Shown: positions 1,618 to 19,004 of the stretch, one piece after another | How positions within the stretch are numbered: position 1 is the first letter of the stretch | Layout: every line of letters begins with the position of its first letter | Assembly (NCBI GenBank): GCA_007117285.1 | Contig: SKGW01000053.1 | Span: 1-38,675 of the forward strand | Length of the DNA stretch: 38,675 bases | Source: Bacilli bacterium | GTDB lineage: Bacteria > Bacillota_I > Bacilli_A > RF39 > UBA660 | Direction of reading: 5' to 3' | Made by a program: the position numbers and the translations under genes | The notes under the pieces: generated by a model | What the model was told of the DNA's origin: nothing | Seen by the model: only the letters and a program-made list of their open reading frames with translations | The model's database searches: none

Positions 1618-2508
1618 GTGAAAGTTCTAGAAATAAATAATCTCGTTAAAAAATATGGAAAAGTAGTGGCTCTAGATAATATTAACCTAAATGTAAACCA
1701 AGGAGAGGTTTACGGTTTCATTGGACCTAACGGAGCTGGAAAAACAACCACCATTAGACTTATATTAGGAATTTTAAAGGCAAATGAAGGAGAAATAAAA
1801 GTATTTGAAAAAGATGCTTGGAATGATGCGGTTATTATTCATGAAAAGCTTGCATACGTTCCAGGTGAAGTAAGCCTATGGCCCAATCTCACTGGTGGTG
1901 AAATCATTGATTTGTTTTTAAAACTAAGAGGTGAGATCAATTACGAAAAAAGAGATGAACTTGTAAAGCGATTTAATCTCGACACAAGCAAAAAGTGTAG
2001 AACATAATCAAAGGGCAATAGACAGAAAGTTGCACTAATAGCAGCTTTTGCATCTGATGCAGATTTATATATATTAGATGAACCAACATCAGGACTAGAC
2101 CCACTTATGGAAAAGATCTTTCAAGAGTGTGTAAGAGAAGTAAAAAAACAAGGGAAAAGCGTTTTCTTGTCAAGTCACATACTATCCGAAGTTGAAAAAC
2201 TATGTGATCGCGTCAGCATAATTAGAGAAGGTAAAATAATAGAAACAGGAACGCTTGAAGAATTGCGTCACTTAACACAAACAAGCATTTATTTAGAAAC
2301 AAAAAAACCTTTGAATGATTTAGAGAAATTAGAGTATATATCAAATTTTTCTAAAAAAGAAAAAGGAGTTTCATTTCAAGTAGATACCGACAAAATTGGT
2401 GAAGTAGTCAAGTATATAGCCGACTATGAAGTTTTAAAATTTGAAAGCGCTCCACCAAATTTAGAAGAATTATTTATGCGTCACTATGAAAATGACGGGG
2501 GTGTTTAA
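1618..2508 (+). pseudogene. ABC-2-type exporter ATP-binding protein interrupted by one in-frame TAA
   Basis: ORFs 1618-2007 and 2107-2508 are in the same frame. Walker A (GPNGAGKTT) is in the first piece. TAA at 2005-2007 sits where the ABC signature would read (Y)SKGNRQKV. Walker B (LYILDEPTSGLD) follows the stop. Confidence 0.8.
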
Positions 2509-2510
2509 TC

Positions 2511-4118
2511 TTGAAACACTCATATAGCAATGTTTTGAATTTAAGTAAATTAGTTTTAAAAAAAAGCATACTAGGCCTATCAATATGGATTTTTGTTTTA
2601 ACAGTAATTACATTAATAGTGGCAGCAGCGTTTACGAATTTATATTCTGGTCCAGAGGAAGTATTAGCAATAGCAGAAACCATGAAAAATCCAGCAATGA
2701 TCGCAATGGTCGGTCCTGGATATGGGATTGATAACTATACTTCAGGTGCAATGATGGCTCATCAAATGTTACTGTTTACTGGACTTGCTGTGGCGGTAAT
2801 GGCAATAATGTTTGTATCAAAAAACACTAGAGCAGATGAGGAAAGCGGAAAGTTAGAATTAATAAGATCACTACCAGTGGGCAGATTTTCAAATCTTCTT
2901 TCAACTGGTATCGTTGGATTCTTATCATTTTTAACTATGAGTTTACTTATTGCTTTTGGCCTATACTTTTTAAAAATAGAATCAATTGATTTAGAAGGAT
3001 CATTAGTATATGGATTATCTCTAGGAGTTATTGGACTGTTTTTTATGGCGGTTGCCAGCATTTTTGCGCAACTTTCAGAAAACACCAAAGGACTTTTAGG
3101 CTATTCGCTAACTTTTCTAGGAATATCTTATATATTAAGAGGTATAGGTGATGTTAATAGTGAATTTCTTTCTTTAATATCTCCACTTGGACTAATATTA
3201 AGAACTCAAACTTATGTTAATAATTATTGGTGGCCAATTATAATAATGTTTGCACTATCAACACTAATTTTTATAATTGCTATGTACCTAAATTCAATTA
3301 GAGATTTAGAAGCTGGATTTATTCCTTCAAAAGCCGGAAAAAGAAACGCCTCTAAATTTTTATTAAAACCGATAGGATTTTTGCTAAAATTACAAAGAAC
3401 TGGTTTAATCGGATGGACAGTAACGCTTTTTGTTTTAGGAATATCTTATGGTGCAGTTTTTGGAGACTTAGAGATGTTCTTCACAAATAATGAAGTTTTA
3501 CAACAAATGCTGCCGGAAGCAGCGGGAATATCGCTGGCTGAACAGTTTCTAACAATTCTTATGACAATCATTTCTATTTTTGCAACTATTCCTGTTCTAA
3601 TTTCAATGTTAAAAATAAAGTCAGAAGAAAAAAAAGGACGTCTAGAGCAAATATATGCTAAAAAAGTGTCTCGTAATGAAATGTTAACTTACCACTTGAT
3701 AATATCAATGTCACTTACTTTTGCAACAATCTTTTTCTCAGCACTGGGATTGTGGCTTGCATCAACATCTGTGATGAGCGATCCAATATCTTTTCTAAAC
3801 ATATGTAAAAGTGCATTTATTTATGCTCCAGCTATTTTATTTATGTTAGGAGTCACAGTATTTTTAATAGGTGCATTTCCAAGGGCAACTACTTTGACAT
3901 GGGCTTATCTAGCATATTCGTTTATAGTTGTATACTTGGGAAACCTTTTGCAATTCCCAGAATGGCTTGCAAAATTAAGCCCATTTGGTAACATTCCTAA
4001 AATTCCAGTTGAAGAATTGACATTAACCGGTCCAATTATTTTAATCATAGGATTTGTTATATTAACAAGTTTAGGATTTTATACTTATAATAAAAGAGAT
4101 ATAAAAGAAAACCTCTAA
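2511..4118 (+). CDS. ABC-2 family transporter permease (multi-pass membrane protein)
   Basis: TTG start 3 nt after the ATPase stop, with GGGGGTG about 10 nt upstream. 535 aa with many hydrophobic segments in two halves, as expected for the permease partner of this type of ATPase. Confidence 0.75.
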   Translation: MKHSYSNVLNLSKLVLKKSILGLSIWIFVLTVITLIVAAAFTNLYSGPEEVLAIAETMKNPAMIAMVGPGYGIDNYTSGAMMAHQMLLFTGLAVAVMAIMFVSKNTRADEESGKLELIRSLPVGRFSNLLSTGIVGFLSFLTMSLLIAFGLYFLKIESIDLEGSLVYGLSLGVIGLFFMAVASIFAQLSENTKGLLGYSLTFLGISYILRGIGDVNSEFLSLISPLGLILRTQTYVNNYWWPIIIMFALSTLIFIIAMYLNSIRDLEAGFIPSKAGKRNASKFLLKPIGFLLKLQRTGLIGWTVTLFVLGISYGAVFGDLEMFFTNNEVLQQMLPEAAGISLAEQFLTILMTIISIFATIPVLISMLKIKSEEKKGRLEQIYAKKVSRNEMLTYHLIISMSLTFATIFFSALGLWLASTSVMSDPISFLNICKSAFIYAPAILFMLGVTVFLIGAFPRATTLTWAYLAYSFIVVYLGNLLQFPEWLAKLSPFGNIPKIPVEELTLTGPIILIIGFVILTSLGFYTYNKRDIKENL

Positions 4119-4129: not shown

Positions 4130-4771
4130 TTTGTCGTTATATCTTTCTTGAATGTGACTTGCGTCACAAAACGGCTTATTTTTTGAAGCTCCGCATCTAC
4201 AAAGCGTTACTCTATTTCTTACTGTTAATTCATTGTTTTCTTCATCAATTATAGGAATTCCACCCTTAACAAAAATGGGACCGCTGCATCCTTTTTCGTT
4301 ATCTTGTAAAATTGATATTTCTTGTTCCAGTACTGGTTCGATAACCTCATTATGTTCCTTAACAACCAATCTTCCCGATGGACAGTCATGAGCAAGCTTT
4401 TTAACGACATCAGAATTACCATCCTCAATTAACTTCCAAATGTCGCTGTTGTTAGTAATGCAAAACCTTGCACTTGAACACAGCTTTTTAGTATCTAACA
4501 AAGTTATTTTTTCATTTTCATAAATCGTAGTCTCATGTTCTTCTTCTTGACAACAGTTTCCATTAAAGCCTGCTTTTATATGAGAACCATCACAAAAAGG
4601 AGGATTCTTGCTATGTCCACAACGACACAAAAAATAAGTTTCTTCAACAGGAAAAACTTCCCCCTCGTTATATGAATACTTATCAGCATTAGCTAGTACA
4701 GTTAATTCATTTAAAGGAATGCTTCCTGTAACTTTATACGGACCATTTTTCATTATCTTAATTTTTTTCAT
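4115..4771 (-). CDS. CDGSH-type iron-sulfur domain protein (two CDGSH motifs flanking a Cys-rich middle domain)
   Basis: CRCGHSKNPPFCDGSH and CRCGASKNKPFCDASH motifs. The middle segment has CSSARFC ... HDCPSGR. AGGTGA RBS upstream of the ATG. Confidence 0.85.
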   Translation of the reverse strand: MKKIKIMKNGPYKVTGSIPLNELTVLANADKYSYNEGEVFPVEETYFLCRCGHSKNPPFCDGSHIKAGFNGNCCQEEEHETTIYENEKITLLDTKKLCSSARFCITNNSDIWKLIEDGNSDVVKKLAHDCPSGRLVVKEHNEVIEPVLEQEISILQDNEKGCSGPIFVKGGIPIIDEENNELTVRNRVTLCRCGASKNKPFCDASHIQERYNDKKTSN

Positions 4772-4787
4772 CTAATCACCTTTATAA

Positions 4788-4840: not shown

Positions 4841-5356
4841 ATGGAAGATTTTTTAAAACTAGCACTTACAAGAGAAAGTTGTAGAAATTTTAGCGAAAAA
4901 ATTGTAGAAATTGAAGATATTAAAAAGTGTGTTGAAGCAGCAAGGATAGCACCATCAGCATACAATGAACAACCGTGGCATTTTTATATCATCGGTGAGA
5001 ATAAATTAGAAGATGTATCATCAAACCTCCAGGCCTTCACAAAAAAAGCAGGGGGCTTTATTGTGGTGTTTGAAAAACCAGCATCAATTCCTGTTAAAAT
5101 AACAAACACTATTAAATCTCAAGATTTCACTAAAATAGATATAGGAATAGCTGCGGCGCATATATGTTTAATGGCGACTAACATGGGAATTTCAAATTGT
5201 ATTTTAGGAATATTTAATGAAAAAAAACTAAAAGAAAATCTTAACATTGATAATAAAGATAGAATCAGACTAGTAATAGCGCTAGGTTATTCAGAAACAA
5301 AAACAAAAGAAAAACGACGAAAGGAATTAGAGCAGATTTCAACTGTTCTTGAATAA
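4841..5356 (+). CDS. Nitroreductase-family flavoprotein
   Basis: SCRNF ... APSAYNEQPWHFYII ... LGY pattern typical of the NADH-oxidase/nitroreductase fold. Strong RBS. Confidence 0.8.
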   Translation: MEDFLKLALTRESCRNFSEKIVEIEDIKKCVEAARIAPSAYNEQPWHFYIIGENKLEDVSSNLQAFTKKAGGFIVVFEKPASIPVKITNTIKSQDFTKIDIGIAAAHICLMATNMGISNCILGIFNEKKLKENLNIDNKDRIRLVIALGYSETKTKEKRRKELEQISTVLE

Positions 5357-7163: not shown

Positions 7164-7935
7164 AAAAGAATATATTAAAGACAAAGAAATTTATTATAAA
7201 GATACAGCTGTTGTAGAGGAGTACTTGAACTACGCTAAAACTATTTTAGGAGAAGATATGTCTGCACAAGCAAAAAAAATGAATATTAACTTAAGACTTA
7301 TTTTGCTTTCATTATTATTTTCCAACGGAAAAAGAATTGTCTTCGAGGACGTTGTATCACAATTAGCTGGAATAAAAGGATCATTAGTAGCTTATGATCA
7401 CTTTAAAAAAAGGGGATTAAAGGTTGAAAGAGAGACTGTTTTTAAAAATGGTGATGAAATACCAATACCAGTTGATTTAGTTTTTGAAGAAAAAAACATT
7501 AAACATTTATGCGAAGTAAAAACAATTTCCCAAATTCTTTTAACTTCTAAAAATTATAAATTAGTTGACTTTACAGACAATCATGGTAGAATCAGAAGAG
7601 AATTATATTCCTTTAATTTTGAAAATAGGAAAAGAATTTTCTCAAGAACCGGAAAAAAACTATTAAAACAAATGGAAAACCTTTGTTTTTATAGAGATAA
7701 TCATAACAATGTTGAAGTGAACTTAATAGTTATGAAAAATGTATTTATCGATGAGAAAATCAAAAGTCAGTTAAAAGAAAAAAATATTAACATAATAATA
7801 GTGCCAACTGATATAGGAGATGTCTTTGACGAAGTTACGGAAAAATTAGAAAAAATATATCTTTTTGGCAAAAAAATGACTGACAATATCACTTTTCCAA
7901 CAGTCAATATGGCAAAAAAACTAAAATCAAGATAA
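7156..7935 (+). CDS. Hypothetical protein with PD-(D/E)XK nuclease-like core (possible N-terminal winged-helix)
   Basis: The ATG at 7156 overlaps the photolyase stop by 8 nt. AYDHFKKRGLKVERE ... PVDLVFEE ... HLCEVKT follows the YraN/Holliday-resolvase-like pattern of E, hhhD, then ExK 13 residues later. Confidence 0.5.
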   Translation: MSKKEYIKDKEIYYKDTAVVEEYLNYAKTILGEDMSAQAKKMNINLRLILLSLLFSNGKRIVFEDVVSQLAGIKGSLVAYDHFKKRGLKVERETVFKNGDEIPIPVDLVFEEKNIKHLCEVKTISQILLTSKNYKLVDFTDNHGRIRRELYSFNFENRKRIFSRTGKKLLKQMENLCFYRDNHNNVEVNLIVMKNVFIDEKIKSQLKEKNINIIIVPTDIGDVFDEVTEKLEKIYLFGKKMTDNITFPTVNMAKKLKSR

Positions 7936-8013
7936 AAAACAACATATATTAATATTTTGGGAAAACACATTAAATTATTCCGATAACTCGGGAAATGCCT
8001 ATAAAAGCAAGAT

Positions 8014-8108
8014 TTTTGAACAAAGTCTCAAAGTTTTGAACAAAAAAGGTCTAAATTCTTGAAAAAAACCAAAAAACATGACTTTTTTGAACATTTTTTG
8101 TTCAAAAA
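8014..8108. promoter_or_regulatory. Array of TTTTGAACA boxes ending in a 10-bp-arm palindrome; candidate operator/promoter region
   Basis: TTTTGAACAAA at 8014-8024 and 8034-8044. A degenerate copy at 8057-8067. TTTTTGAACA at 8084-8093 faces TGTTCAAAAA at 8099-8108 across a 5-nt spacer. The array sits directly upstream of the ORF starting at 8144. Confidence 0.6.
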
Positions 8109-8143: not shown

Positions 8144-8338
8144 ATGGCATATAAAATAAAAAAAGATGAAAGAGATGAAGAGTTAATTGGAAAAAAAATC
8201 AATAAATTAATTATTGATAGTGATTCTGAACGACCTTTTGAAATTGTTTTTGAATATGAAGCTCTAAAAGAAGAAGATATAGTTGAAAATAAAAAGCGGA
8301 AAGAGGAAAAGAAAAATGATGAAAAACCTTCAAGTTAA
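8144..8338 (+). CDS. Small (64 aa) highly charged Lys/Glu-rich hypothetical protein
   Basis: ATG preceded by AGAGGTGA. MAYKIKKDERDEEL... The upstream part of the track ORF (from 8078) runs through the operator palindrome and lacks an RBS. Confidence 0.5.
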   Translation: MAYKIKKDERDEELIGKKINKLIIDSDSERPFEIVFEYEALKEEDIVENKKRKEEKKNDEKPSS

Positions 8339-9977
8339 CGAAATCAATTCCTTTATTTCCGACGTGAAATTAAATAATCTCAATTCCAGAGAAATTTATC
8401 GCAAATTACTACAGTACAAAGTAGATCCTGAATACGTAAATAGAGATATGACCTCTCTTAGAGATTTCTGCTCAAACATTCCCGAGGTTTTAATCTCCCA
8501 AATCGAAGAAAAAAGAAAAACAAGTAGCGAATATGATCTTTTTAGATCATATATCAAACTTCAAAGTCCCGAAAAATATACATTTAAACATATAAATGCC
8601 TCTTTTAATCATAAGAATGAAGCTGGTGTAAGAGATATAGTTAAATTATATATACCGATTCATTTTAAGCACCTACCCGAAAGTCTTTCCAAGATTTATC
8701 AATTTCTTTTTGATAATAAAATAGATTTTCAATCAAAAATAGCTGGCGAAATTAGATCGGACTTATTTTGCTTGCGAGTAAATTCCAAAGAAAATGCCAA
8801 AAAAGTAATAGATTTTTGCAAAAAAGACAAGCAAATAAGCGGAAATTATACCAAACTCAATCCATTCTTAGCTCAATCTGATGGAATTGGTGTTGCACAA
8901 GACACATATCACCAAAGTTATAATGAGTATGTATCTAGAATATTGGAAGAATATAAAAAAAGAACTCCAAAAATTAGTAATGCATCATTCGACTTGCAGG
9001 ATTTTGTAAAAACTAAGTATTTAACTGCAAAAGATACTCGTAACAAGTATATGTCGAGTGTGTTTTTGAGAAATCTTGAATCAATAAACAGCCGGACTGA
9101 TATTTTTGTTTATTTAAAAGATAAATACAACATTACATTCGATGCAAATCTATTTTACCAATATGAAAGATTTCATGACGGTAAGAACTATTTTTATAAA
9201 GATGAGTCAGGAACAACAATATCAAAAGATACAAATCCAGAATTATATCTTAAACTCCAGGCCAACAATTTTCTACATAAAATTCATTTGAACTATTATA
9301 AAGAAAATCCTGAAAAAGATTTCGTGTTAAATGAAACAATTTCAAAACAAATTTCGCAAAGATTAGACGATATCCTAGACCTAAATTTGAAATCACTTTC
9401 AAATTGTGAAATAAATGCTATATACGATGATCCTAAAATAGCAGAACTAACACCATACTTTTATGCGAACTTTGCAAAAGAGCATAAATTTACCAACTCC
9501 TATGAAACATACCAACTAATTAATCATATTCAGAAAAGTGTTGTAAAAAAAGAAGATGAAAGAATAAAGCAAGAAACAAGCAAAAATCTTCCAAACTATG
9601 TAATAAGTGTAGCAGACGGAACAGTTGTGATAAATAAAACCTCCGAAAACATGTGTAATATATTACTAAAAAAAGCCGATAAAATTAAAAGATATCGAAA
9701 TGTTTCACTTGAATTAAATGATGAATTAATGAAGGAAATTAGCGACATCTCCAAAGCATATCGTTCTTCTATCGCAAGCATTTTATTAGATGAAGAGAGA
9801 AATCAACGAATGATAAACGATAGAAAGGGCCATTTCGGAATATTTGAATATAATCCTCATGAGAAAAATGTTGCTAAGTTTTATGATCCAGAATCAATTA
9901 GAAAACTATATGCTGAACGAAAAGGAAAGAACCTGGAAATAGAAGTGGAAGAAGAGATTGCTTCAAAAGCAAGATAA
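8316..9977 (+). CDS. Large orphan hypothetical protein (~553 aa)
   Basis: ATGATG at 8316, with AAAGAGGA 8 nt upstream, overlaps the 3' end of the small ORF by 23 nt. I have no confident family. The N-terminal third (VKLYIPIHF ... FQSKI ... IRSDLFCLRV ... NPFLAQSDGIGVAQD) is faintly reminiscent of the HopA1 / LanKC-N lyase-like family. Confidence 0.7.
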   Translation: MMKNLQVNEINSFISDVKLNNLNSREIYRKLLQYKVDPEYVNRDMTSLRDFCSNIPEVLISQIEEKRKTSSEYDLFRSYIKLQSPEKYTFKHINASFNHKNEAGVRDIVKLYIPIHFKHLPESLSKIYQFLFDNKIDFQSKIAGEIRSDLFCLRVNSKENAKKVIDFCKKDKQISGNYTKLNPFLAQSDGIGVAQDTYHQSYNEYVSRILEEYKKRTPKISNASFDLQDFVKTKYLTAKDTRNKYMSSVFLRNLESINSRTDIFVYLKDKYNITFDANLFYQYERFHDGKNYFYKDESGTTISKDTNPELYLKLQANNFLHKIHLNYYKENPEKDFVLNETISKQISQRLDDILDLNLKSLSNCEINAIYDDPKIAELTPYFYANFAKEHKFTNSYETYQLINHIQKSVVKKEDERIKQETSKNLPNYVISVADGTVVINKTSENMCNILLKKADKIKRYRNVSLELNDELMKEISDISKAYRSSIASILLDEERNQRMINDRKGHFGIFEYNPHEKNVAKFYDPESIRKLYAERKGKNLEIEVEEEIASKAR

Positions 9978-10002
9978 TTAATAATTTCTTGCTTTTTTAT
10001 TG
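9879..10002 (+). repeat. Direct repeat copy 1 (124 bp): 3' end, stop and terminator of the orphan gene
   Basis: Matches 14127-14249 with 3 substitutions and one 1-nt indel. Confidence 0.95.
9967..9999 (+). terminator. Intrinsic terminator spanning the stop codon of the orphan gene
   Basis: Stem AAGCAAGA (9967-9974) / TCTTGCTT (9987-9994), an AT-rich 12-nt loop, then a T-run. Confidence 0.65.
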
Positions 10003-10017
10003 GCAATAAACCGGTTA

Positions 10018-10027
10018 TTTTGAACAA
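10018..10027 (+). promoter_or_regulatory. Additional TTTTGAACAA box upstream of the glycosylation cassette promoter
   Basis: Exact 10-mer shared with 8014 and 8034. It lies 16 nt after repeat copy 1 and about 24 nt before the TGCTATAAT box. Confidence 0.45.
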
Positions 10028-10050
10028 CATAGTATTAATTTGTACTCTTG

Positions 10051-10059
10051 TGCTATAAT
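10051..10059 (+). promoter_or_regulatory. Extended -10 box (TGCTATAAT) of the glycosylation cassette
   Basis: TGCTATAAT at 10051-10059, about 77 nt upstream of the ATG at 10136. Confidence 0.55.
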
Positions 10060-10135
10060 GAAATTAATAATTGCATAATATGTGATGTAACGTATAAATG
10101 ATTTGAGTGTCCTGCATATTTTGAAAGGAGCAAAT

Positions 10136-11062
10136 ATGAAATTAATCATTCAAATTCCCTGTTATAACGAAGAAAAAACATTAGCAAAAACAATTAGTGA
10201 TTTACCAAAAAAAATAGAAGGAATAGATACAATAGAAATCGTAGTAATTGATGATGGTTCCAATGATAAAACAAGTATAGTGTCAAGTGAATTAGGTGTG
10301 AATTATGTTGTTAGTTTAAATAGAAACAAAGGTTTAGCAACTGCTTTTCAATGTGGAATTGATAAATGTTTGGAACAAGGAGCAGATATTATTGTGAATA
10401 CTGATGGTGATAATCAGTATAAAGCAAAGTATATTAAAGAGTTAATAAAACCTATCTTAGATAAGAAAGCAGATATAGTAATTGGGGATCGTCAAGTAAT
10501 GAAAAACAGAAATATGAATTTGACTAAAAAAATTTTTCAAAAGTTGGGCTCATTGGTTGTAAGCAGATTGGCTCGGAGTAAAATACCTGATGTAACAAGT
10601 GGCTTTAGAGCTTATTCTAGAGATGCAGCTTTAAATATCAATGTTAACTCTGAATATTCTTACTCATTAGAGACGCTAATTGATTCTGGAATTAGAAAAG
10701 AAAAAATCATATCAATACCTATTGAAACAAATCCCAAAACAAGGGAGTCAAGATTATTTAAAAACAATATATACTATATTAAAAAATCAACCTCAACAAT
10801 AATTAGATCCTTCTTATATAATAAGCCGTTAGGGGCTATTTTCACTAGTTCCTTGGTTTTCTTTGGATTAGTTATTATTATGCTTTCGTTATACTTGAGA
10901 AATGAGAGCATTAATTTTCTAATATTAGCACTCCTTTTTTTCATAACAGGAACACAACTAGTCATATTTTCTTTTATTGCAGATTCGATAGCTAACAATA
11001 AAAAAACAAATGATAAAATACTATATAGGATTAAAAAAAATGATTACAAAAAAAACAATTAA
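10136..11062 (+). CDS. GT2 glycosyltransferase, GtrB/CsbB-like polyprenyl-phosphate sugar synthase
   Basis: ATG with an AAAGGAG RBS. IQIPCYNEE, VVIDDGSNDKT and NTDGDNQY (DxD) motifs. Two C-terminal hydrophobic helices, as in GtrB-type enzymes. Confidence 0.85.
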   Translation: MKLIIQIPCYNEEKTLAKTISDLPKKIEGIDTIEIVVIDDGSNDKTSIVSSELGVNYVVSLNRNKGLATAFQCGIDKCLEQGADIIVNTDGDNQYKAKYIKELIKPILDKKADIVIGDRQVMKNRNMNLTKKIFQKLGSLVVSRLARSKIPDVTSGFRAYSRDAALNINVNSEYSYSLETLIDSGIRKEKIISIPIETNPKTRESRLFKNNIYYIKKSTSTIIRSFLYNKPLGAIFTSSLVFFGLVIIMLSLYLRNESINFLILALLFFITGTQLVIFSFIADSIANNKKTNDKILYRIKKNDYKKNN

Positions 11063-11495
11063 TCAATTTTTGAAATATCATTTTATTTCCGGAATAGGGT
11101 GGATTTTAAATTTATTGATTTTCCTGTTTTTCCTAAAAAAATTCAATATTTTTGTATCCAATATTTTATCCACTTATATAACAATAACAGCCGTATTCAT
11201 ACTATCGGTATATAAAGTGTTTGATAGTACAGTTGATAAAAAGTCGATTAACTACGTTATATATTTGATATATAAAGTTTTATCAGTATTTATTTTTTCC
11301 TATGTTCTAGTAATGATTTATAATCTTCTATCAAAGGTTTTAGATAATCCTGTAATATTATCTAAAATACTAATCACCCCCTTAATTTCTTGTAGTAATT
11401 TTTTCGCATTAAAAATAATTATAGAGGAATTTGCCAAAAATAAGATAAAATGCTATTATTTAGAAAATAATGTAAAGGAGAGTAATTTGTATTGA
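11040..11495 (+). CDS. GtrA-like small polytopic membrane protein (putative lipid-linked sugar flippase)
   Basis: About 150 aa with four hydrophobic segments. Sits immediately after and overlaps the GT2 gene. The start is ambiguous (ATG 11040 or ATG 11010). Confidence 0.65.
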   Translation: MITKKTINQFLKYHFISGIGWILNLLIFLFFLKKFNIFVSNILSTYITITAVFILSVYKVFDSTVDKKSINYVIYLIYKVLSVFIFSYVLVMIYNLLSKVLDNPVILSKILITPLISCSNFFALKIIIEEFAKNKIKCYYLENNVKESNLY

Positions 11496-11515
11496 AAGTA
11501 AGGAATAATTTCACG

Positions 11516-12571
11516 ATGATCAAAAAGCTTGAAAAAAAAATCAAAGGTTTTACATTAATAGAGTTACTTGCGATTATTGTTATAATTGGTCTGCTAATAT
11601 TAGTAATTGTACCGGCGGTATCTGATGTAATTGAACATTCTAGAAAGAAAACTTTTCATTCCAGTATATCTAGCTTGGTTAAAATTGCCCAAAACACTTG
11701 TGCCGAAAGGGTGGCATTTGGTCAGGAAAAAGATGTTACTTATACTTTTGAAAACGGTATTCAAACAACTCACCCTAGCAATCAATCAAAATTATCATTT
11801 GCGGGAAAAGCTCCTCACGCTGGATATTTAATTATAAATGGGGACTGTGAGATAAGATTGTCGCTTTCAAACGGGAAATATTTTATTGAAAAGAGTTTTG
11901 AAAGCACGCTAAATCAGCCTGTTGCTTATGACGATCAAGATTTAGAGGCTCCTTATCTGAAGGCACCTTGCCGGGGAATGACTAGCATAGTTGATCCAAG
12001 AGATTCTAAAGAATACAAAATAGTTGAAATTGGAGATCAATGTTGGTTTGCTGAATATTTAGATTATGAAGATCCTCTTTGTATTTCAAATCCAATTGAT
12101 CATCCGTCAGCAACGGGTTGCAGAAGAAATAACAATATAGTTTATTACCAATTCGATGCCCTAATGAATGGCGAAACCACAGAAGGTAGTCAAGGAGTTT
12201 GCCCTACAGGCTGGTACGTTCCTACGGATGACGACTTTCATGCATTAGAAATTTACTATGCCGTCGATGAATGTTCTGCAACAAGAATAGGTTTGCATGG
12301 TTCTGGATCTGAGTCTTCATATGATTGTTCACCGGCAGGGTCAGCGCTAAAACACACTAATTATTTTAATGCGGAATTAGTTGGCTACGTTATACCTTAT
12401 TCGGGAAACCTCTTTAATTATGGTTTTGATGCACTACTAGTTAGTTCAAGTGAATATTATAACGATTACTCCATAGTCAGAATTGTTTCCGAATCTTCTG
12501 ATGCCATTAGTCGAGCCTATACTTCAACGTATAATTTGTTACCCTTGAGGTGCATAAAGAGCAGTCAATGA
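11516..12571 (+). CDS. Prepilin-type leader protein with pilin-like head and C-terminal Fibrobacter-succinogenes-major-paralogous (FISH) domain
   Basis: MIKKLEKKIKG/FTLIELLAIIVIIGLL is a class III signal (G/F with Glu at +5). C-terminal DPRDSKEYKIVEIGDQCWFAEYL ... CPTGWYVPTDDDF ... LPLRCIKSS matches the FISH-domain pattern. Ends with TGA. Confidence 0.85.
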   Translation: MIKKLEKKIKGFTLIELLAIIVIIGLLILVIVPAVSDVIEHSRKKTFHSSISSLVKIAQNTCAERVAFGQEKDVTYTFENGIQTTHPSNQSKLSFAGKAPHAGYLIINGDCEIRLSLSNGKYFIEKSFESTLNQPVAYDDQDLEAPYLKAPCRGMTSIVDPRDSKEYKIVEIGDQCWFAEYLDYEDPLCISNPIDHPSATGCRRNNNIVYYQFDALMNGETTEGSQGVCPTGWYVPTDDDFHALEIYYAVDECSATRIGLHGSGSESSYDCSPAGSALKHTNYFNAELVGYVIPYSGNLFNYGFDALLVSSSEYYNDYSIVRIVSESSDAISRAYTSTYNLLPLRCIKSSQ

Positions 12572-12581
12572 GGTTTTCATT

Positions 12582-14225
12582 ATGAAAAAGAAAAATATAT
12601 TTTTAATGATATCGTTATTAATAGCTCTAAAATTTGTTCTAATTACTAGCAATATAACACCTTACTTTAGAATGATGCGTTTTGATGAGTTGCTCTATAT
12701 TGATCAAACATATAATTTGTTTAATGGTAATTTCTTAGGAGTTTATAACGAATACACTTTAACTAAGGGGTATATATTCCCTCTTTTTGTTTTGTTTTTC
12801 AACGTTTTTAAAATATCGTATGTTATGGGACTCGAAATATTTTATGTAATCACATTATTGTTATTTTTTCGCGCTTTAAGATACTACACAGACAAGGAGA
12901 TTGTTAAAATATCAATTTTTGCAGTTTTGCTTTTTTCACCAGTCATAGTTACTTGGGAAATGTCGAACATGTTTTATCGGAACGGCTTGAGTCTAGTCTT
13001 GGCCTTTCTTTTGTTTGTAATTTTTTTAGAAATATATAACAATTCTAATAACCAAAAAAATTATTTTCTATTTGGCATTGTTGCAGCATTATTTATGCTT
13101 AATAGAGAGGATTTTTATTGGTTTATTCCCATCTTTATATCACTTTTATTTATTAAAACTAAAATCACTAACAAGATTGTGCCGATAGTAATTATTGCCT
13201 GTTCTTTTTTTATAGTCGCAACAGTTAATTATTATTATTATGATACTTTTATAGTGAACGAATTGAAATCTGGTCAATTTAAAAATACATATTCACTAAT
13301 GATGAGCGTCAAAAGAAAAAATGACTCAAACCTAATATTTAGCGAAAGAATTGAGTTAGTAAAAGAGTACAGTCCAGCTTTCAATTCTATTTTTAAAGAT
13401 GATAATTTCGGCACATATATGTCTTTAAAAGGAAATGTAGAGAGTTATAAGGATTTAGAAGATAGAGGAATACCTAATCACTTTTTTTGGATCTTTCGAG
13501 AAAGAGTTCAACAGTTGGGGTATTATGAAAGTGCAAACGAAGCCGAACTATTTTATAAAAGAATATATGATGAAATAAAAAAGGAAATCGATGATGGTAA
13601 TTTAACAAAAGAAAAAACAATTTCGACAGGGATGGCCTTGCCTATATATTTAGATCAGATAAACCTTGAATATTTAGGTGCCGTTTCTGGTAGGCTTGCC
13701 ACTTCTTTCAAGATGTCAGCTACTTATGATGGTATAAAATATGTTGAACCTTGCTCGCCTAAATATTTTGGATATGAAAAAAAGTTTGAAAAAATCACAA
13801 ATGTTGAAAACAAGAAATTTTTATGTTCTGAAAAAACAAGAAATTATAACCAAACGACGATAGTGAAAATAGAAAGAATAAGAAAAGTTTATGCTATAGT
13901 TACACCGTTTTTGCTTCTTGGAGGATTTGGATCCTTGATAGCTTTGATTTACAAGAAAAAGGATATCTTTGCAGAATTGGCAATATTTTTAGCAGTAACT
14001 TTGCTTGCACTTGGAGTGTCGTTTGCAGACTACACTTCGTTTTACGCTTTGCGGTTTTATTATCTTGCACCACTGTACTTTTTTCTTCCAATAGCTAGTA
14101 TTTTGTTAATATTGAAATTAATAAAATTTTATGATCCAGAATCAATTAGGAAACTATATGCTGAACGAAAAGGAAAGAACCTGGAAATAGAAGTGGAAGA
14201 AGAAATTACTTCAAAAGCAAGATAA
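12582..14225 (+). CDS. GT-C-fold-like polytopic membrane glycosyltransferase (GtrC/YfhO/ArnT-type role) with a chimeric C-terminal tail
   Basis: Multi-pass membrane protein. A DELLY motif lies after the first helix (DExxY first-loop signature of GT-C enzymes). It has a soluble insert of about 200 aa and further helices. The last 32 aa are encoded by repeat copy 2. Confidence 0.6.
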   Translation: MKKKNIFLMISLLIALKFVLITSNITPYFRMMRFDELLYIDQTYNLFNGNFLGVYNEYTLTKGYIFPLFVLFFNVFKISYVMGLEIFYVITLLLFFRALRYYTDKEIVKISIFAVLLFSPVIVTWEMSNMFYRNGLSLVLAFLLFVIFLEIYNNSNNQKNYFLFGIVAALFMLNREDFYWFIPIFISLLFIKTKITNKIVPIVIIACSFFIVATVNYYYYDTFIVNELKSGQFKNTYSLMMSVKRKNDSNLIFSERIELVKEYSPAFNSIFKDDNFGTYMSLKGNVESYKDLEDRGIPNHFFWIFRERVQQLGYYESANEAELFYKRIYDEIKKEIDDGNLTKEKTISTGMALPIYLDQINLEYLGAVSGRLATSFKMSATYDGIKYVEPCSPKYFGYEKKFEKITNVENKKFLCSEKTRNYNQTTIVKIERIRKVYAIVTPFLLLGGFGSLIALIYKKKDIFAELAIFLAVTLLALGVSFADYTSFYALRFYYLAPLYFFLPIASILLILKLIKFYDPESIRKLYAERKGKNLEIEVEEEITSKAR

Positions 14226-14249
14226 TTAATAATTTCTTGTTTTTTATTG
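14127..14249 (+). repeat. Direct repeat copy 2 (123 bp)
   Basis: Same sequence as 9879-10002. It includes 32 codons, the TAA and a weakened hairpin/T-run. Confidence 0.95.
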
Positions 14250-14275
14250 ATAAGAATTGGTTGCTATGTTATACT
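14247..14275 (+). promoter_or_regulatory. Sigma-A-type promoter of the 586-aa gene, with its -35 box straddling the end of repeat copy 2
   Basis: TTGATA (14247-14252), a 17-nt spacer with TG at -15/-14, then TATACT (14270-14275). The RBS AGGAGG precedes the ATG at 14301. Confidence 0.65.
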
Positions 14276-14300
14276 TTTTATTAGAGTAGGAGGATTTTAA

Positions 14301-16061
14301 ATGGAAAAAAAATACATTATAATGCTAAGAATAGCATCGGTTGTACTTATTGTTTTACTGGGAGCAATAGCGTACATTTCACTATCAGTTAATCCAAAAA
14401 GCGTTTTTATTGCATCAATTAATAATACATACACACAAATGTCAAATGTGATGAGCGGATTAAGAGAAAGCAAATTTGCAACACTCTCAAGAGAAAAACC
14501 AGTGTCGCTAATTACTGAAGTTGATTTTGAATTCGGTCATTCAGAAGGTCTTCAAGAACTAGAAATGATCGCAGAAATGCTTGAAGGCTTAGGAATTAAT
14601 TACTCAATTGAGCAAGATTTATTGAATAAAAAATTATATATGGATTTTCGAGCTTTATTTGAAGAAGAGAAAATTTTAGGAGCAAATGTTTTTGCCGAAG
14701 ACGGCGTTACATACTTCTTTATACAAGAATTTTTTGATCATTATGTAGGTGTTGATGATATCGATTTATTTCAAGAAGATGAAACTGATGTAGTTGAGTT
14801 GCTTGATGATGTTGAAATATTAGTTGAAAAGACTAAAACACTATTTTTGAAAAGTTTGAAAAATGATTACTTTTCTTCAGAAAAAACAGATATTACATTA
14901 AATGGAGAGCAAGTATCTGTAACTAGAAATACCTTTGATTTAGATGAAACTAGAATTAAAGAGATGTTGGAATATGTAATTAATGGATTGAAAAAAGATG
15001 AAAAAGCACTTGAATCACTTAAAAACATAGCAAATTATAGTTCGAATGAAAATCTATCAAAAGAAGAAATTATCGAAGGACTTGATGAAGCAATAGCAGA
15101 AATTCCAAATTTAGATTTAGATGGATTTGAAATGTCTTATTCAATCTATGTTAAAGGCCTTTTAAATAAAATAGTTAAACATGATTTCATGATTTCATAC
15201 AATGACTACAATGGAGCACAAACAGTAAACATAATTAACTATAATAGAGATAAAATTAACGTGTTTGAATTTTACAATAATGATGAAATGGTTTTGAGTT
15301 TTGAACTATTAGAAAATGATGAAGAAACATCAAAATTTGGAATATTTGTTTATGAAAATGGTGAACAAATATTTGCAATTGAACTTGAAATGAAATTCAC
15401 AGAAACCGAAATAGAAAAAGATAAGCATTACGAAAGTGAACTTAATTTAAATCTGAAAGTTACAATGGAAGATGATAATATAATTTTTGGAATGAATGCA
15501 ATAACAGAACTGGAAGTACTTGAAAGAATTTATGAACCATCAAGAGGTGTTTTAATAAAATATGATGATATGACAGAAATGCAAATAGAAAACATGGAAC
15601 AAACTTTAGAAGATTTATTTGGCGGAATTGCAGAAATGCTATTCCCTGGAGCTTTTGAAGCAATCGACGACGCTCAAAAAGGAGCTTTTAATGCAACAGG
15701 ATATGGATTGGTAAGAGCAGCAGAAAACGAACATATGAGAAGAGCTTTAGGCGGCGAAACCCTCGAAATTCGCTATGAATTTAAGCTTGATGGTACCAAC
15801 ATGGGAACAAACGGAACAAGTTTAGATTTTAATGGACAACAACCAATTATCGGTTCAATAGTTGTAAAAGAAGATGGACTAGTATATATGGCCGTGTCAG
15901 ATGGAACATATTGCTTGGTGTCAGCAGGAAATAGAGAAGAAGTCTTCACGTATGATGAATATGAATTGATGTCACAATATGCTGTTGATAGTATCTATGA
16001 CTGCACAGTTGAAGGTTTGAACCTTCGATTAAATATTAACAATTTACATTTTGAACGTTAG
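14301..16061 (+). CDS. N-terminally anchored acidic protein ending in a pilin-head-like module (no prepilin leader)
   Basis: One N-terminal hydrophobic helix (IASVVLIVLLGAIAYISLSV) and a long D/E-rich region. The last ~150 aa align by eye with the head domains of the two prepilin proteins (AFNATGYGLVRAAE ... LDFNGQQPIIGSIVV ... SDGTYCLVS). Confidence 0.7.
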   Translation: MEKKYIIMLRIASVVLIVLLGAIAYISLSVNPKSVFIASINNTYTQMSNVMSGLRESKFATLSREKPVSLITEVDFEFGHSEGLQELEMIAEMLEGLGINYSIEQDLLNKKLYMDFRALFEEEKILGANVFAEDGVTYFFIQEFFDHYVGVDDIDLFQEDETDVVELLDDVEILVEKTKTLFLKSLKNDYFSSEKTDITLNGEQVSVTRNTFDLDETRIKEMLEYVINGLKKDEKALESLKNIANYSSNENLSKEEIIEGLDEAIAEIPNLDLDGFEMSYSIYVKGLLNKIVKHDFMISYNDYNGAQTVNIINYNRDKINVFEFYNNDEMVLSFELLENDEETSKFGIFVYENGEQIFAIELEMKFTETEIEKDKHYESELNLNLKVTMEDDNIIFGMNAITELEVLERIYEPSRGVLIKYDDMTEMQIENMEQTLEDLFGGIAEMLFPGAFEAIDDAQKGAFNATGYGLVRAAENEHMRRALGGETLEIRYEFKLDGTNMGTNGTSLDFNGQQPIIGSIVVKEDGLVYMAVSDGTYCLVSAGNREEVFTYDEYELMSQYAVDSIYDCTVEGLNLRLNINNLHFER

Positions 16062-16067
16062 AAATAT

Positions 16068-16110
16068 AAAAACAGTTTTTACTATTTTAGTCAAAATACT
16101 GTTTTTTTTT
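16068..16110 (+). terminator. Intrinsic terminator (long imperfect hairpin plus T9)
   Basis: AAAAACAGT (16068-16076) pairs with ACTGTTTTT (16098-16106). The T-run extends to 16110. Confidence 0.6.
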
Positions 16111-16118
16111 GCTCTTTT

Positions 16119-16127
16119 TGATATAAT
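16119..16127 (+). promoter_or_regulatory. Extended -10 box (TGATATAAT)
   Basis: Located 26 nt upstream of the ATG at 16153. The RBS GAGGAG lies in between. Confidence 0.55.
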
Positions 16128-16152
16128 TTAATTAGTTTGAGGAGAGTTTTTT

Positions 16153-17547
16153 ATGAAAAAATACGATTTTATTATAGTTGGTGCAGGACCTAGTGGAATA
16201 TTCACTGCCTTTGAATTGCTTAAAAACGAAAAAAATCTAAAAATTTTAATGATTGAAAAAGGTAGATCAATAAAAAAAAGAATCTGTCCCAAAAGAACAA
16301 ATCACAGTTGCGTAAATTGCGTACCGTGTAATATTACTACAGGATTTTCTGGTGCTGGAGCATTTTCAGATGGAAAATTAAGCATTAATGAACACGGCGA
16401 AGTAGGTGGCAACTTAATTGATTATTTAGGAAAAAAAGAATTTGGAGAAATTTTGAAATATACAGATGATATTTATATAAATTTTGGAGCTGATCAAAAA
16501 GTATACGGACTTGAACGTAACGGTGAATCAGAATTAATTAGAAAGCGAGCAATCGAGTGCAACTTAAAACTAATTGAATCTGGTGTTAGGCACTTAGGAA
16601 CTGAAAAAGCTTTTGAAATTTATACAAAACTTCAAGAATACCTAACTGAAAAAGGTGTTGAAATTTTATTTGAAACACCCGTAACAGAGTTCATTATTGA
16701 AGAAAACATTGCAAAAGGTGTTGAGACTAAAGATTCAAAATATTATGCAGATAAAATAGTTGTAAGTGCAGGTCGTGAGGGCTGTTCATGGTTAAACCAT
16801 ATGTGCTCTAAAAATAAAATCAAAACAGAATCTGGTGTTGTTGATATTGGTGTTCGTGTTGAATGTGACAGTACAATAACTCAAAAAGTTGATGAAGTAA
16901 GTTATGAAAGTAAATTAATTAACTACACAAAAACATTTGACGATAAAGTAAGAACCTTTTGTTGGAATCCAAGAGGTGAAGTGAGCGAAGAACGATATGA
17001 TAAAAACTTAGCGCTTGCAAACGGTCACAGTTATAAAGACGAAAAGCTCAAAACTCACAATACAAATTTAGCATTGCTAGTTTCTAAAAAATTTACAGAA
17101 CCATTTAAAACACCTATTGAATATGGAAGACATATTGCTAGATTAGCAAATATGCTTTCTGGGGGCAAAGTTTTAGTTCAAACTTATGGAGATTTTAAAA
17201 GAGGCAGAAGAACTACACAACAAAGACTCGATAGAAATAATACACAACCAACTTTAAAAGATGCTGTTGCTGGGGATTTAAGCCTAGTACTACCATATAG
17301 AATTATGTTGGATATAAAAGAAACAATTGAAGCTTTGGATCACTTGATGCCAGGATTTGCTGGAGATGGAACATTAATATATGGTGTTGAAGTAAAATTT
17401 TATTCAAATAAAATAAAATTAAGCAAAAACTTTGAAACAAGCATAAAAAACTTATACGCACTAGGCGATGGAGCAGGAATAACTAGAGGTTTGATGCAAG
17501 CCAGTATGAATGGTGTAGCATTTGCAAGAAATTTAAAAAGCAACTAA
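16153..17547 (+). CDS. FAD-dependent oxidoreductase-like protein
   Basis: N-terminal dinucleotide-binding motif YDFIIVGAGPSGIF. Cys cluster CPKRTNHSCVNCVPC. C-terminal LYALGDGAGITRG. Confidence 0.75.
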   Translation: MKKYDFIIVGAGPSGIFTAFELLKNEKNLKILMIEKGRSIKKRICPKRTNHSCVNCVPCNITTGFSGAGAFSDGKLSINEHGEVGGNLIDYLGKKEFGEILKYTDDIYINFGADQKVYGLERNGESELIRKRAIECNLKLIESGVRHLGTEKAFEIYTKLQEYLTEKGVEILFETPVTEFIIEENIAKGVETKDSKYYADKIVVSAGREGCSWLNHMCSKNKIKTESGVVDIGVRVECDSTITQKVDEVSYESKLINYTKTFDDKVRTFCWNPRGEVSEERYDKNLALANGHSYKDEKLKTHNTNLALLVSKKFTEPFKTPIEYGRHIARLANMLSGGKVLVQTYGDFKRGRRTTQQRLDRNNTQPTLKDAVAGDLSLVLPYRIMLDIKETIEALDHLMPGFAGDGTLIYGVEVKFYSNKIKLSKNFETSIKNLYALGDGAGITRGLMQASMNGVAFARNLKSN

Positions 17548-17556
17548 TTAGTTACT
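17539..17556. terminator. Imperfect palindrome around CTAATTAG between convergent genes (weak bidirectional terminator candidate)
   Basis: AACTAATTAGTT (17542-17553) is a perfect palindrome flanked by an A-run and a T-run. It contains the + strand TAA stop. The convergent pgm-like gene stops 17 nt further on. Confidence 0.35.
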
Positions 17557-17564
17557 TTTTTCTG

Positions 17565-18914
17565 TTAATTTATCAATTTTTCAATGTTTTCCGACCATTT
17601 TCTTCTAATTTCTTCTAATTTTTCATTAGAAACAGCCTCAAATCGCGCTGTAAGGTTAGGTCCAGTATTAGAAGCTCTAATTAATGCAAAACCATCTTCA
17701 TAAATAATTTTACACCCATCCAATGTAATAACATCAAGTCCTTCTTTTTCAGCAACCTCTTTAATTTTTTCAATAACTGAAAATTTAATTGAATCTTCGG
17801 TTTTGAACTTTAACTCCTCGGTTGAATAGTAATTGTTAATTCCTTTCAAAAGAGAACTAACAGGAACTTTTTTTCTACTAATAATTTCCATTAATCTAAG
17901 CGAAGCATATATTCCATCGTCATAACCCAAAAATTTATCATTAAAAAATATATGTCCGGAAAATTCTCCTCCAAAAAGGATGTTTTCCTTTGAAATTGCT
18001 GATCTCAAATATGAATTTCCAGTTCTTGACAAAACAGGAATACCTCCCAATTTGTTAATTTCATCTTCTAGTGCCTTAGAACACTTAACATCAAATAAAA
18101 TTCTTTTATCTTTAATTTTTTCTAAAATGTCTCGAATAACAATAATCATTAATTTATCGGGCTCGATAATATTTCCCAATTCATCGACCATGCCAATTCG
18201 ATCAGCGTCTCCATCTAGAGCAAAGCCAACATCAGCACCTGTTTCAAGCACCTTATCAGATAAATCTTTTAAATTCTCCGGTACGCTTGGGTCAGGGTGG
18301 TGGTTTGGAAAAGAAGGATCTGATTCAAAAAACAAAGGCGTATATTTGATTGGTAATCTTTTTAAAATATCTTCGATAACAATTGAACCGCTACCATTTC
18401 CAACATCAAAGACCACATCTAAATTACCGATTTCAACATCTTTAAGAAGAAAATCCATGTAATGCTCTTTTATATCAACCTTTTTACAAGTTCCTTTTCC
18501 AGAGTTGAAATTTTTACTTTTAATAAGTTCTTTAAAATCTTGGATTTCTTGTCCGTGAGAATTATATTGGCCGTTAAAAGAAAACTTAAAACCATTATAC
18601 TCCTTTGGATTGTGAGAAGCGGTAATCATAATACCTGATTTTGATTTAAAAAAATGCCAAGAAAAATAATACATCGGAGTTGTAACAAGTCCTAAATTAA
18701 TTACATCAATTCCGCTGTCCATAATACCCTTGCTTAAAGCAGCAAAAAGATTTTCTGATGAATCGCGATTATCATAGCCAATAGTAGTAAACTCCTGTCC
18801 ATCATTGCCAATCCACGTGCCAAAAGCACGCCCTAAGTTATAGGCCATATCCTCATTTACTTGACTTGGATATACGCCTCTAATATCATAAGCTCTAAAA
18901 ATTGTTTCATCCAT
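17565..18914 (-). CDS. Phosphomannomutase/phosphoglucomutase (alpha-D-phosphohexomutase family)
   Basis: ITASHNPKEYNGFKF (active-site Ser loop), FALDGDADRIGMVD (metal loop), GGEFSGHIFF. The start is taken as ATG 18914 with a GGGTGA RBS. The GTG used by the track lies inside that RBS. Confidence 0.9.
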   Translation of the reverse strand: MDETIFRAYDIRGVYPSQVNEDMAYNLGRAFGTWIGNDGQEFTTIGYDNRDSSENLFAALSKGIMDSGIDVINLGLVTTPMYYFSWHFFKSKSGIMITASHNPKEYNGFKFSFNGQYNSHGQEIQDFKELIKSKNFNSGKGTCKKVDIKEHYMDFLLKDVEIGNLDVVFDVGNGSGSIVIEDILKRLPIKYTPLFFESDPSFPNHHPDPSVPENLKDLSDKVLETGADVGFALDGDADRIGMVDELGNIIEPDKLMIIVIRDILEKIKDKRILFDVKCSKALEDEINKLGGIPVLSRTGNSYLRSAISKENILFGGEFSGHIFFNDKFLGYDDGIYASLRLMEIISRKKVPVSSLLKGINNYYSTEELKFKTEDSIKFSVIEKIKEVAEKEGLDVITLDGCKIIYEDGFALIRASNTGPNLTARFEAVSNEKLEEIRRKWSENIEKLIN

Positions 18915-18948: not shown

Positions 18949-18977
18949 TTGAAAAATTAGACTAAACTGTGTATAAT
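18949..18977 (+). promoter_or_regulatory. Sigma-A-type promoter of the glucan synthase gene
   Basis: TTGAAA (18949-18954), a 17-nt spacer, TATAAT (18972-18977). GGAGG at 18995-18999 and ATG at 19005. Confidence 0.65.
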
Positions 18978-19004
18978 GTAAATGTATGTAACGTGGAGGT
19001 AATT

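Follow-up and report, generated by a model that had tools for sequence, protein, structure and literature searches.

In the 38,675-bp contig SKGW01000053.1 of a Bacilli bacterium (assembly GCA_007117285.1, lineage UBA660), a 124-bp direct repeat that brackets a glycosylation operon is most probably the scar of a lineage-specific, single duplicative insertion, formally an insertion-duplication of the Campbell type, which fused the tail of an orphan gene onto a membrane glycosyltransferase. This complete, metagenome-derived contig (~30% G+C) is hereafter called the window, and the features of the locus all lie on its + strand. To the left of the insertion lies the orphan gene (8316-9977), to the right a gene encoding a 586-aa protein (14301-16061; the 586-aa gene), and between them a cassette of four genes whose products are a family 2 glycosyltransferase (GT2), a GtrA-like membrane protein, a prepilin-type FISUMP protein, and a polytopic GT-C-like transferase. 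A first-pass annotation of the window had suggested that the cassette was captured into the 3' end of the orphan gene in the style of integrative elements that carry a replacement 3' end. The insertion itself is borne out by an empty-site allele in a related contig and by GT-C relatives that lack the tail, whereas the likeness to integrative elements proved to be formal only.

The repeat pair and the tail held in common by two proteins

Self-comparison of the window and a MAFFT alignment placed the repeat at 9876/9879-10002 (copy 1) and 14124/14127-14249 (copy 2), with a spacing of 4248 bp and a left breakpoint that is ambiguous across 9875-9878 (TAAG versus TAAA). It is the one outstanding direct repeat in the self-comparison. 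Over 9879-10002 the copies agree at 120 of 124 positions (96.8% identity, 3.2% divergence), differing, as first described, by three substitutions and a single-base indel in the T-run. Reading from copy 1 to copy 2, the substitutions at 9902 (A to G; AGA to AGG) and 9956 (G to A; GAG to GAA) are synonymous, as had been stated for two of the three, while that at 9960 (G to A; GCT to ACT) replaces Ala with Thr, and an extra C near 9994 is present in copy 1 only. The longest exact word common to both copies is 53 nt, compared with 15-18 nt in 20 shuffles of the window, which rules out chance or low complexity as the origin of the repeat. Its borders are sharp, in that the 50-100 nt next to the repeat align only as well as shuffled sequence does (p = 0.66 and 0.24), and a longer, decayed duplication running past the repeat ends is thereby ruled out as well.

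Each copy is made up of 32 codons (FYDPESIRKLYAERKGKNLEIEVEEEI[A/T]SKAR) with a TAA, together with a hairpin and its T-run, and the first-pass observation that the same tail stands on two otherwise unlike proteins was confirmed, as were the other factual statements of that annotation. Copy 1 (9879-10002) comprises the final 32 codons of the orphan gene with the stop codon (9975-9977), a terminator stem (9965-9974 with 9987-9996) predicted by folding to have an energy of -15.7 kcal/mol (z -3.8), and the T-run, and it ends in ATTG. Copy 2 (14127-14249) is fused in frame to the GT-C-like gene (12582-14225), which takes from it both a stop codon (14223-14225) and a terminator. This terminator (stem 14213-14222 with 14235-14244; -7.9 kcal/mol) is weakened, as the missing C turns a G-C pair into a G-U pair. 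Copy 2 closes with three bases, TTG, that form part of the next gene's -35 box.

We assigned the tail to its original owner by comparing the relatives of the two proteins that carry it. The orphan protein (553 aa when read from the ATG at 8316, and 564 aa in the mechanical open reading frame (ORF), which starts at a TTG at 8283) matched no Pfam, NCBIfam, PADLOC or PHROG family. Its own family is very rare, a search of 5.8 billion proteins having yielded only 5 clusters of homologues; a metagenome scan with this family for further orphan loci returned only two short, distant contigs. Distant homologues at 29-36% identity nonetheless keep a homologous C-terminus: that of P0005 (29% identity) reads ...KFYDPDIIQNLYARK...VVEEKVSKFRR, and P0004 (36% identity) has a similar, homologous end. 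As distant members carry a homologous C-terminus, the tail is native to the orphan family, and these alignments identify that family as the original owner of the 32 residues.

For the GT-C-like protein, a word-based search found only the protein itself, and an exhaustive HMMER search recovered 1979 relatives, the best of them at 33% identity. In the best full-length relatives homology ends near query residue 512-518, and the aligned relatives terminate ~5-25 residues past the last membrane helix, none of them with the orphan tail, which rules out that the tail is native to the GT-C family. The first-pass annotation had named the same tail on GT-C orthologues from genomes without the orphan gene as an observation that would speak against capture; it was found in none of those aligned, but in the distant orphan homologues. 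Since the homology of the relatives stops at ~515 and the tail is absent from them, the transferase is a chimera: of its 547 residues, 1-515 are native, and residues 516-547, together with the stop codon and the terminator, are on this comparison borrowed from the end of the orphan gene. The transferase gene was thus cut within roughly 5-25 codons of its native end and reads in frame into copy 2. The other two reading frames into copy 2 would also terminate, after 20 aa or 1 aa, and the in-frame fusion therefore needs no selection to explain it.

An empty site and the age of the duplication

The orphan gene has its closest relative (81% amino-acid and 79% nucleotide identity) on a 3564-bp single Logan contig from SRR34579705 (L002), which crosses the insertion site without a break. 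Here, 75 nt past the end of the orphan homologue, comes a 585-aa gene with 68% identity to the 586-aa gene of the window. An empty-site allele, whose absence from all relatives the first-pass annotation had named as evidence against capture, therefore exists; the same spacing of 75 nt separates the transferase stop from the start of the 586-aa gene in the window. A three-way alignment, and blastn too, revealed that L002 runs collinear with the window to the left of copy 1 and to the right of copy 2 and contains a single copy of the 124-bp segment. The insertion therefore amounts to 10003-14126 (4124 bp) plus one repeat unit. Its insertion point, ATTG|ATAAG, falls within the -35 hexamer, TTGATA, of a promoter-like site that belongs to the 586-aa gene (14247-14275; TTGATA-17-TATACT, with a TG before the -10, by consensus scan), in agreement with the earlier remark that TTGATA at 14247-14252 straddles the end of copy 2, and at the same place L002 has TTGATA-17-TATAAT. 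As the duplicated segment ends in TTG, the promoter was rebuilt at copy 2. After the insertion the orphan gene thus keeps an intact 3' end and terminator, and the 586-aa gene keeps its promoter.

The same alignment bears on the age of the event. Each copy in the window is ~80% identical to the L002 copy, which is also the level of identity of the 300-bp flanks on either side, whereas the two window copies are far more alike than this. The duplication is therefore most likely much younger than the split from the L002 lineage, unless gene conversion kept the copies alike. When the four copy differences were polarised with L002 as the outgroup, only two were informative and they pointed to opposite copies, with the change at 9956 falling in copy 1 and the loss of the C in copy 2. 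No cassette was found downstream of the orphan gene at the more distant orphan loci (L003, L004 and L005).

Support for the assembled structure comes from a 43-kb contig (L001; ENA ERZ27301260, k141_320415) that is 99.89% identical to the window over 19,977 bp and shares with it the layout and each of the four copy-specific differences. The k141 in its name may refer to a final MEGAHIT k-mer of 141, which would span the 124-bp repeat. In the Logan unitigs from SRR7083930 the breaks fall exactly within the repeat: L040 corresponds to 9962-14149 at 100% identity, with the copy-1 variant leading into the cassette, and L042 corresponds to 14210-18110, with the copy-2 variant leading into the 586-aa gene. 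As L042 carries the alleles of L001, the window represents at least a second strain, and the filled state is the only one seen in this species, in the window, L001 and the unitigs. On the point of mis-assembly, which the first-pass annotation had wanted excluded by mapping reads, L001 and the unitigs, as assembled sequences, support the structure.

Comparison of the two strains also showed that their 22 differences in 19,977 bp are clustered, 7 of them within 43 bp (358-400) and 8 within 279 bp (9528-9806). Both clusters look like short recombination imports from a lineage diverged by ~3%. The second tract (8 single-nucleotide differences, 2.9% divergence) sits just left of copy 1, and its alleles matching L002 are split evenly between the two strains, which gives no direction for the exchange.

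The inserted operon and its putative function

The inserted DNA (10003-14126), absent from the empty site, is a single, closely packed operon with a leader and a probable promoter, as the first-pass annotation had described it. The promoter element, a probable extended -10 (TGCTATAAT, 10051-10059), was read from the sequence only and was not listed by the consensus promoter scan, there being no -35 box at canonical spacing. Pfam names three of the four cassette ORFs, and the four together leave no space for a further gene. The GT2 protein (10136-11062) is a membrane-linked polyprenyl-phosphate glycosyltransferase of GT-A fold and GtrB/CsbB/AglJ/PgfS type (PF00535, 1e-24), whose best NCBIfam matches, the polyprenyl-phosphate transferases AglJ, dolichyl-phosphate hexose transferase, PgfS and ArnC, are all below the equivalog cut-offs; its translation shows hydrophobic C-terminal segments, and its nearest relatives are 54-56% identical. 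The small membrane protein encoded next (11040-11495), a putative flippase, is only borderline in its assignment as GtrA-like, with a PF04138 score of 26.1 bits that is exactly the gathering cut-off and a weak mark in the precomputed table too. The third gene (11516-12571) encodes a prepilin-type FISUMP, or Fib_succ_major, protein with PF07963 and PF09603 domains, a TIGR02145 match at 2e-21, and pilin N-terminal matches.

The fourth product, the polytopic transferase, had no Pfam match and was placed by its fold. An AlphaFold2 model (predicted local distance difference test (pLDDT) score 79, predicted template modelling (TM) score 0.83) was compared with the PDB using Foldseek, and the top 16 matches were all GT-C enzymes (AglB, STT3, PglB, ArnT, ALG9), at scores that are modest (probability up to 1.0, E 2e-3 or worse, TM ~0.36). 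Within the family, one of ten members matched PMT_2, and the alignment showed Asp35 to be invariant and Asp36 nearly so, both residues lying just past the first helix; relatives of the protein often adjoin a GT2 gene. We consequently describe the 547-aa protein as a GT-C-like transferase, as the predicted fold suggests.

The predicted gene set matches a multi-component transmembrane glycosylation operon of the three-component, Gtr type. In such systems undecaprenyl phosphate receives a sugar from a GT-A enzyme, the product is flipped by a GtrA-type protein, and a GT-C enzyme then carries out the transfer outside the membrane (PMC8035078). By analogy with these families, the cassette GT2 would load a sugar onto undecaprenyl phosphate (PMC8035078), the GtrA-like protein would flip the lipid-linked sugar across the membrane, and the GT-C enzyme would pass it to an acceptor on the outside, for which the co-encoded, pilin-like FISUMP protein is possibly a candidate, as acceptor or as partner. 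The phage gtrABC serotype-conversion loci of Shigella and Salmonella and the multi-component CsbB/GtcA/YfhO-type systems of Gram-positive bacteria (PMC8035078, PMC7389260) likewise combine a GT-A/GT2 enzyme with a GtrA-type flippase and a transferase of GT-C fold in a horizontally variable module that modifies the cell surface. Unlike them, the cassette lies outside a prophage and includes a prepilin/FISUMP gene, and its GT-C protein is without a named family and has a chimeric C-terminus. A further likeness, by which the pilin-like protein becomes a candidate acceptor, is to pilin glycosylation by TfpW of Pseudomonas aeruginosa, where a pilin-type gene also adjoins a membrane glycosyltransferase of GT-C fold (bioRxiv 10.1101/2020.04.19.049825); this likeness is one of gene arrangement, and the pilin-like protein of the cassette differs in having a large FISUMP domain.

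A short sequence recurs near both ends of the insert. The window has just two exact occurrences of the 12-mer TGAAATTAATAA, one lying 56 nt in from the left end of the insert and the other at the very end on its right; with one mismatch allowed, the match grows to a 16-mer (10055-10070 and 14109-14124). The left copy makes a mini-ORF, MKLIIA*, reminiscent of the start of the GT2 protein (MKLII, at 10136). The pair gave a shuffle p of ~0.001, a value from one of several such tests in AT-rich DNA.

Origin of the scar and its consequences

The arrangement of the locus is that of a Campbell-type event, with two direct copies of one contiguous target segment and outer flanks that are collinear with the empty site. 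The ancestor would have had the orphan gene, then 75 nt, then the 586-aa gene, an arrangement that survives in L002. Into this the 4124-bp, promoter-bearing glycosylation operon would have entered within the -35 box of the 586-aa gene, such that the 124 target bases to the left of the insertion point now flank the insert on both sides. We infer that one crossover united the chromosome with a circular molecule in which the cassette was joined to a 124-bp copy of the 3' end of the orphan gene. The crossover was most likely made by host homologous recombination, as the cassette encodes no recombinase. The first joint between cassette and tail could have been one illegitimate joint at TAA[G/A], or could have come from a staggered break with fill-in. 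The divergence of the tract at 9528-9806 is close to that of the two copies, which weakly hints that one copy came from a diverged donor allele. In insertion-duplication mutagenesis, as used in Streptococcus and Bacillus, circular DNA bearing a target fragment is integrated by a single crossover. As there, the insert in the window lies between two direct copies, a 3' end within the homology keeps the gene intact, and the event can revert; the present case differs in being a natural event with no plasmid backbone, in which the putative circle would have carried exactly 124 bp of the target, and in that no circular form was seen.

Several observations weigh against this account. A circle bearing the 124 bp needs an origin that the Campbell-type model does not explain. 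The empty site is seen in a single relative, which is distant (~80% nucleotide identity), and ancestral presence of the cassette followed by precise loss, though very improbable, would give the same picture; the window and L001 are possibly not independent samples. The cassette shows no independent sign of being foreign, with a tetranucleotide distance within one standard deviation of the window mean and ordinary G+C at third codon positions. The search for a donor found none, the nearest GT2 being 56% and the nearest GT-C relative 33% identical; the genome of the window itself did not appear in the scan of species-representative genomes made for this search. Finally, neither a circular form nor a second insertion site nor a deletion allele came to light, and nothing shows that the cassette is mobile.

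Marks of a mobile element were sought throughout the window. Pfam scans of the cassette and of the full 38.7 kb revealed no integrase, transposase or remnant of either, in line with the first-pass annotation, which had seen none. The cassette has no terminal inverted repeats (p = 0.21), no tRNA gene or Rfam family that could be the target was found in the window, and the genes around it serve housekeeping functions (secA, mreB, a hibernation factor gene, rpiB and a phosphoglucomutase gene). DDE transposons are recognised by a transposase, terminal inverted repeats and a short target duplication of 2-14 bp. With no transposase, no inverted repeats and a duplication of 124 bp, a transposon or a unit bounded by insertion sequences was ruled out. 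Searches of phage records with the 8283-16061 region, of viral contigs with the orphan family and the repeat sequence, and of plasmid records with the orphan protein gave no match, and we found no case for a prophage or plasmid origin.

Among the rival explanations, a one-step illegitimate insertion comes closest to the Campbell-type event, and we regard it as rather unlikely without dismissing it. Under this scenario nicks in opposite strands, 124 nt apart, at a staggered break or during fork repair, would have been filled in around a linear foreign fragment, leaving copies that were initially identical and then drifted. The sharp borders, the microhomology of no more than 3 nt (TAA) at the right junction and the lack of a recombinase fit such an insertion, and one polarisable change per copy (9956 and the loss of the C) fits independent drift. 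Against it, the foreign fragment would have had to be a whole operon, from its promoter to a few codons before the end of its last gene, and to our knowledge target duplications of >100 bp from staggered breaks are not documented as routine in bacteria; as a single instance it is also indistinguishable from the Campbell-type route. A quite different explanation, that the cassette and both repeats are ancestral, that gene conversion keeps the copies alike, and that the L002 lineage lost the cassette through the repeats, is very improbable. Recombination between the 124-bp repeats would indeed leave the exact L002 arrangement, and the cassette resembles the rest of the window in composition, but 96.8% against ~80% identity would need sustained conversion between short repeats that are equally prone to deletion, and neither the aligned GT-C relatives, which lack the tail, nor the more distant orphan loci, which lack the cassette, fit with it. 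Least probable of all, to the point that we give it scarcely any weight, is an assembly artefact in which a metagenome-derived contig is chimeric at the repeat and the copies truly lie at unlinked places. The variants at the four positions are each linked to their own flank in the window, in L001 and in the Logan unitigs, L002 independently shows the outer flanks as neighbours, as insertion predicts, and even a chimera would leave the tail common to two proteins.

The remaining rival is the one nearest to the first-pass suggestion, namely that the cassette is a non-autonomous integrative element, such as a cis-mobilizable element (CIME) or satellite, moved by a tyrosine or serine recombinase encoded elsewhere, with the repeats as attL and attR and a replacement 3' end carried by the element. 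Phage 21 and e14 insert at icd in this way, each carrying a replacement 3' end. Direct repeats that rebuild a target 3' end are typical of 3'-end-targeting integrative and mobilizable elements (IMEs), integrative and conjugative elements (ICEs) as well as prophages, and CIMEs, which are decayed ICE or IME derivatives that a related element moves at the same site, are by definition without integrase genes (PMC5704250). As in these elements, the cassette has flanking direct repeats, one of which completes the target, an empty site, and adaptive, surface-modifying cargo; the insert is a tidy, complete, promoter-bearing operon, and the few differences between the copies could be those between donor and recipient. 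It differs from them, whose intact or decayed forms are defined by integrase genes or their traces (PMC5704250), in that no recombinase, excisionase, transfer gene or remnant is found in the cassette or in the surrounding 38.7 kb. The repeat is longer than the usual 8-60 bp of tyrosine-recombinase att repeats (PMC5704250), and the right junction lies inside coding sequence, truncating and fusing the last cargo gene, which is unexpected for an evolved att site. No partner element was found in the window or in the phage and plasmid searches, and no second instance of the cassette or the repeat was found in viral contigs or in phage or plasmid records. We therefore consider an integrative element improbable, and the single duplicative insertion remains our preferred reading. 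Equally improbable in our estimation is that the cassette is a recombinase-free mobile module with a captured 124-bp homology handle, which host recombination would insert without harming the neighbours, excise as a circle, and pass between strains.

Modules that enter beside a conserved gene and leave 3' fragments without a dedicated recombinase are known from the Rhs, contact-dependent inhibition (CDI) and type VI secretion system (T6SS) effector loci, where C-terminal displacement is attributed to homology-facilitated illegitimate recombination (PMC5361080). There the resident 3' end is replaced and a toxin/immunity piece is orphaned, whereas here the resident gene is untouched and the fragment ends an unrelated gene. 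We also compared each of 38 related loci with itself for long repeats around GT-C cassettes, which yielded one look-alike, in a metagenome-assembled genome of an uncultured member of the Tenericutes (L019; CAMYRF010000015.1), where a 143-bp repeat of 92% identity surrounds a cassette of GT-C, GT2 and 569-aa genes. The genes that bear this repeat (2243-3112 and 7195-8103) encode full-length paralogous surface proteins of 44% identity, the 143-bp stretch encodes a VPSTG sorting signal, a membrane anchor and a terminator, and the cassette adjoins a sortase gene; the paralogues may be glycosylated sortase substrates. This is a different phenomenon, and a general habit of GT-C cassettes to have long flanking repeats was rejected. 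On a TARA ocean scaffold (L039), a 55-bp GT2 3' end is repeated 114 bp downstream (4732-4786 and 4846-4900; 98% identity). The GT2 protein there is 56% identical to that of the window, and the contig also carries, upstream, a fragment of an rve-family integrase gene.

The scar would carry a route to its own reversal. The repeats are of sufficient length for RecA-type recombination, which could delete the cassette precisely and restore an arrangement like that of L002, a step that would be one-way within a cell lineage. Such loss is plausible; that it serves as an on/off switch for the surface-modification module, as the first-pass annotation had envisaged, is speculation. A circular or tandem form of the cassette would join the end of the GT-C gene, through a repeat, to GCAATAAACC. 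The recombinant orphan proteins predicted from a deletion (...EEITSKAR) were absent from a collection of 15 billion proteins, a check of low power.

The orphan gene itself has a regular neighbour. It is always preceded by a small acidic ORF of 52-64 aa that touches or overlaps its start (window, 8144-9977; L003, 9850-11671; L005, 529-2293; L004, 997-2942, each interval covering the pair). In the window this ORF, to which the call in L001 gives 64 aa, occupies 8144-8338 and overlaps the start of the orphan gene; a gene is called at this position in L001, L003, L004 and L005, and the four products align weakly. The best structural match of an AlphaFold2 model of the orphan protein (pLDDT 71) was the LxmY chain of the dehydratase complex of lexapeptide, a class V lanthipeptide (9dk1_B; E 5.5e-3, probability 1.0, 145 columns), with class III lanthipeptide synthetases matching more weakly. 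The small ORF and the orphan gene could form a two-gene peptide-modification module.

Elsewhere in the window, the ATPase of an ABC transporter appears to be split into two ORFs ~100 nt apart, encoding a 129-aa ABC_tran part (1618-2007) and a 133-aa DrrA C-terminal part (2107-2508); the same split is present in L001 and may reflect a pseudogene or a frameshift. A second prepilin-type protein with an N-terminal methylation motif (27814-30501; 895 aa) contains a DUF4434 domain, which together with the FISUMP prepilin suggests that pilin-like anchors serve this organism to display large enzymes or binding domains. A 2535-aa ORF (18969-26576) with Glycoamylase, GH94 beta-supersandwich and GH94 domains resembles cyclic beta-1,2-glucan synthases/phosphorylases and adjoins a phosphoglucomutase gene and a PGI-domain gene. 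An internal 87-nt repeat of 70% identity (35364-35450 and 36132-36218) in a 396-aa thioredoxin-domain ORF (35198-36388) probably corresponds to duplicated thioredoxin-fold modules.

Taken together, the locus is a well-documented insertion scar with a gene fusion as its by-product, and a variant of known insertion-duplication architectures that stands out for the absence of a visible recombinase, an unusually long duplication, and two undamaged neighbouring genes. Unless the cassette is mobile, it is an evolutionary footprint and not a new mechanism. It provides a worked example of how a whole surface-modification operon can enter a chromosome without visible mobile machinery or damage to its neighbours, and the insertion made a new protein end, in that a membrane glycosyltransferase took its last 32 residues, stop codon and terminator from an unrelated soluble protein. 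For annotation it is a warning that a C-terminus common to unrelated proteins can be an insertion scar and not a functional domain. It further marks a strain-variable glycosylation locus in uncultured, low-GC gut or environmental bacteria, whose built-in route to precise loss may matter for recognition by phage or host; and if the recombinase-free module were to prove true, a surface-glycosylation trait would be gained and lost at the population level without a dedicated recombinase.

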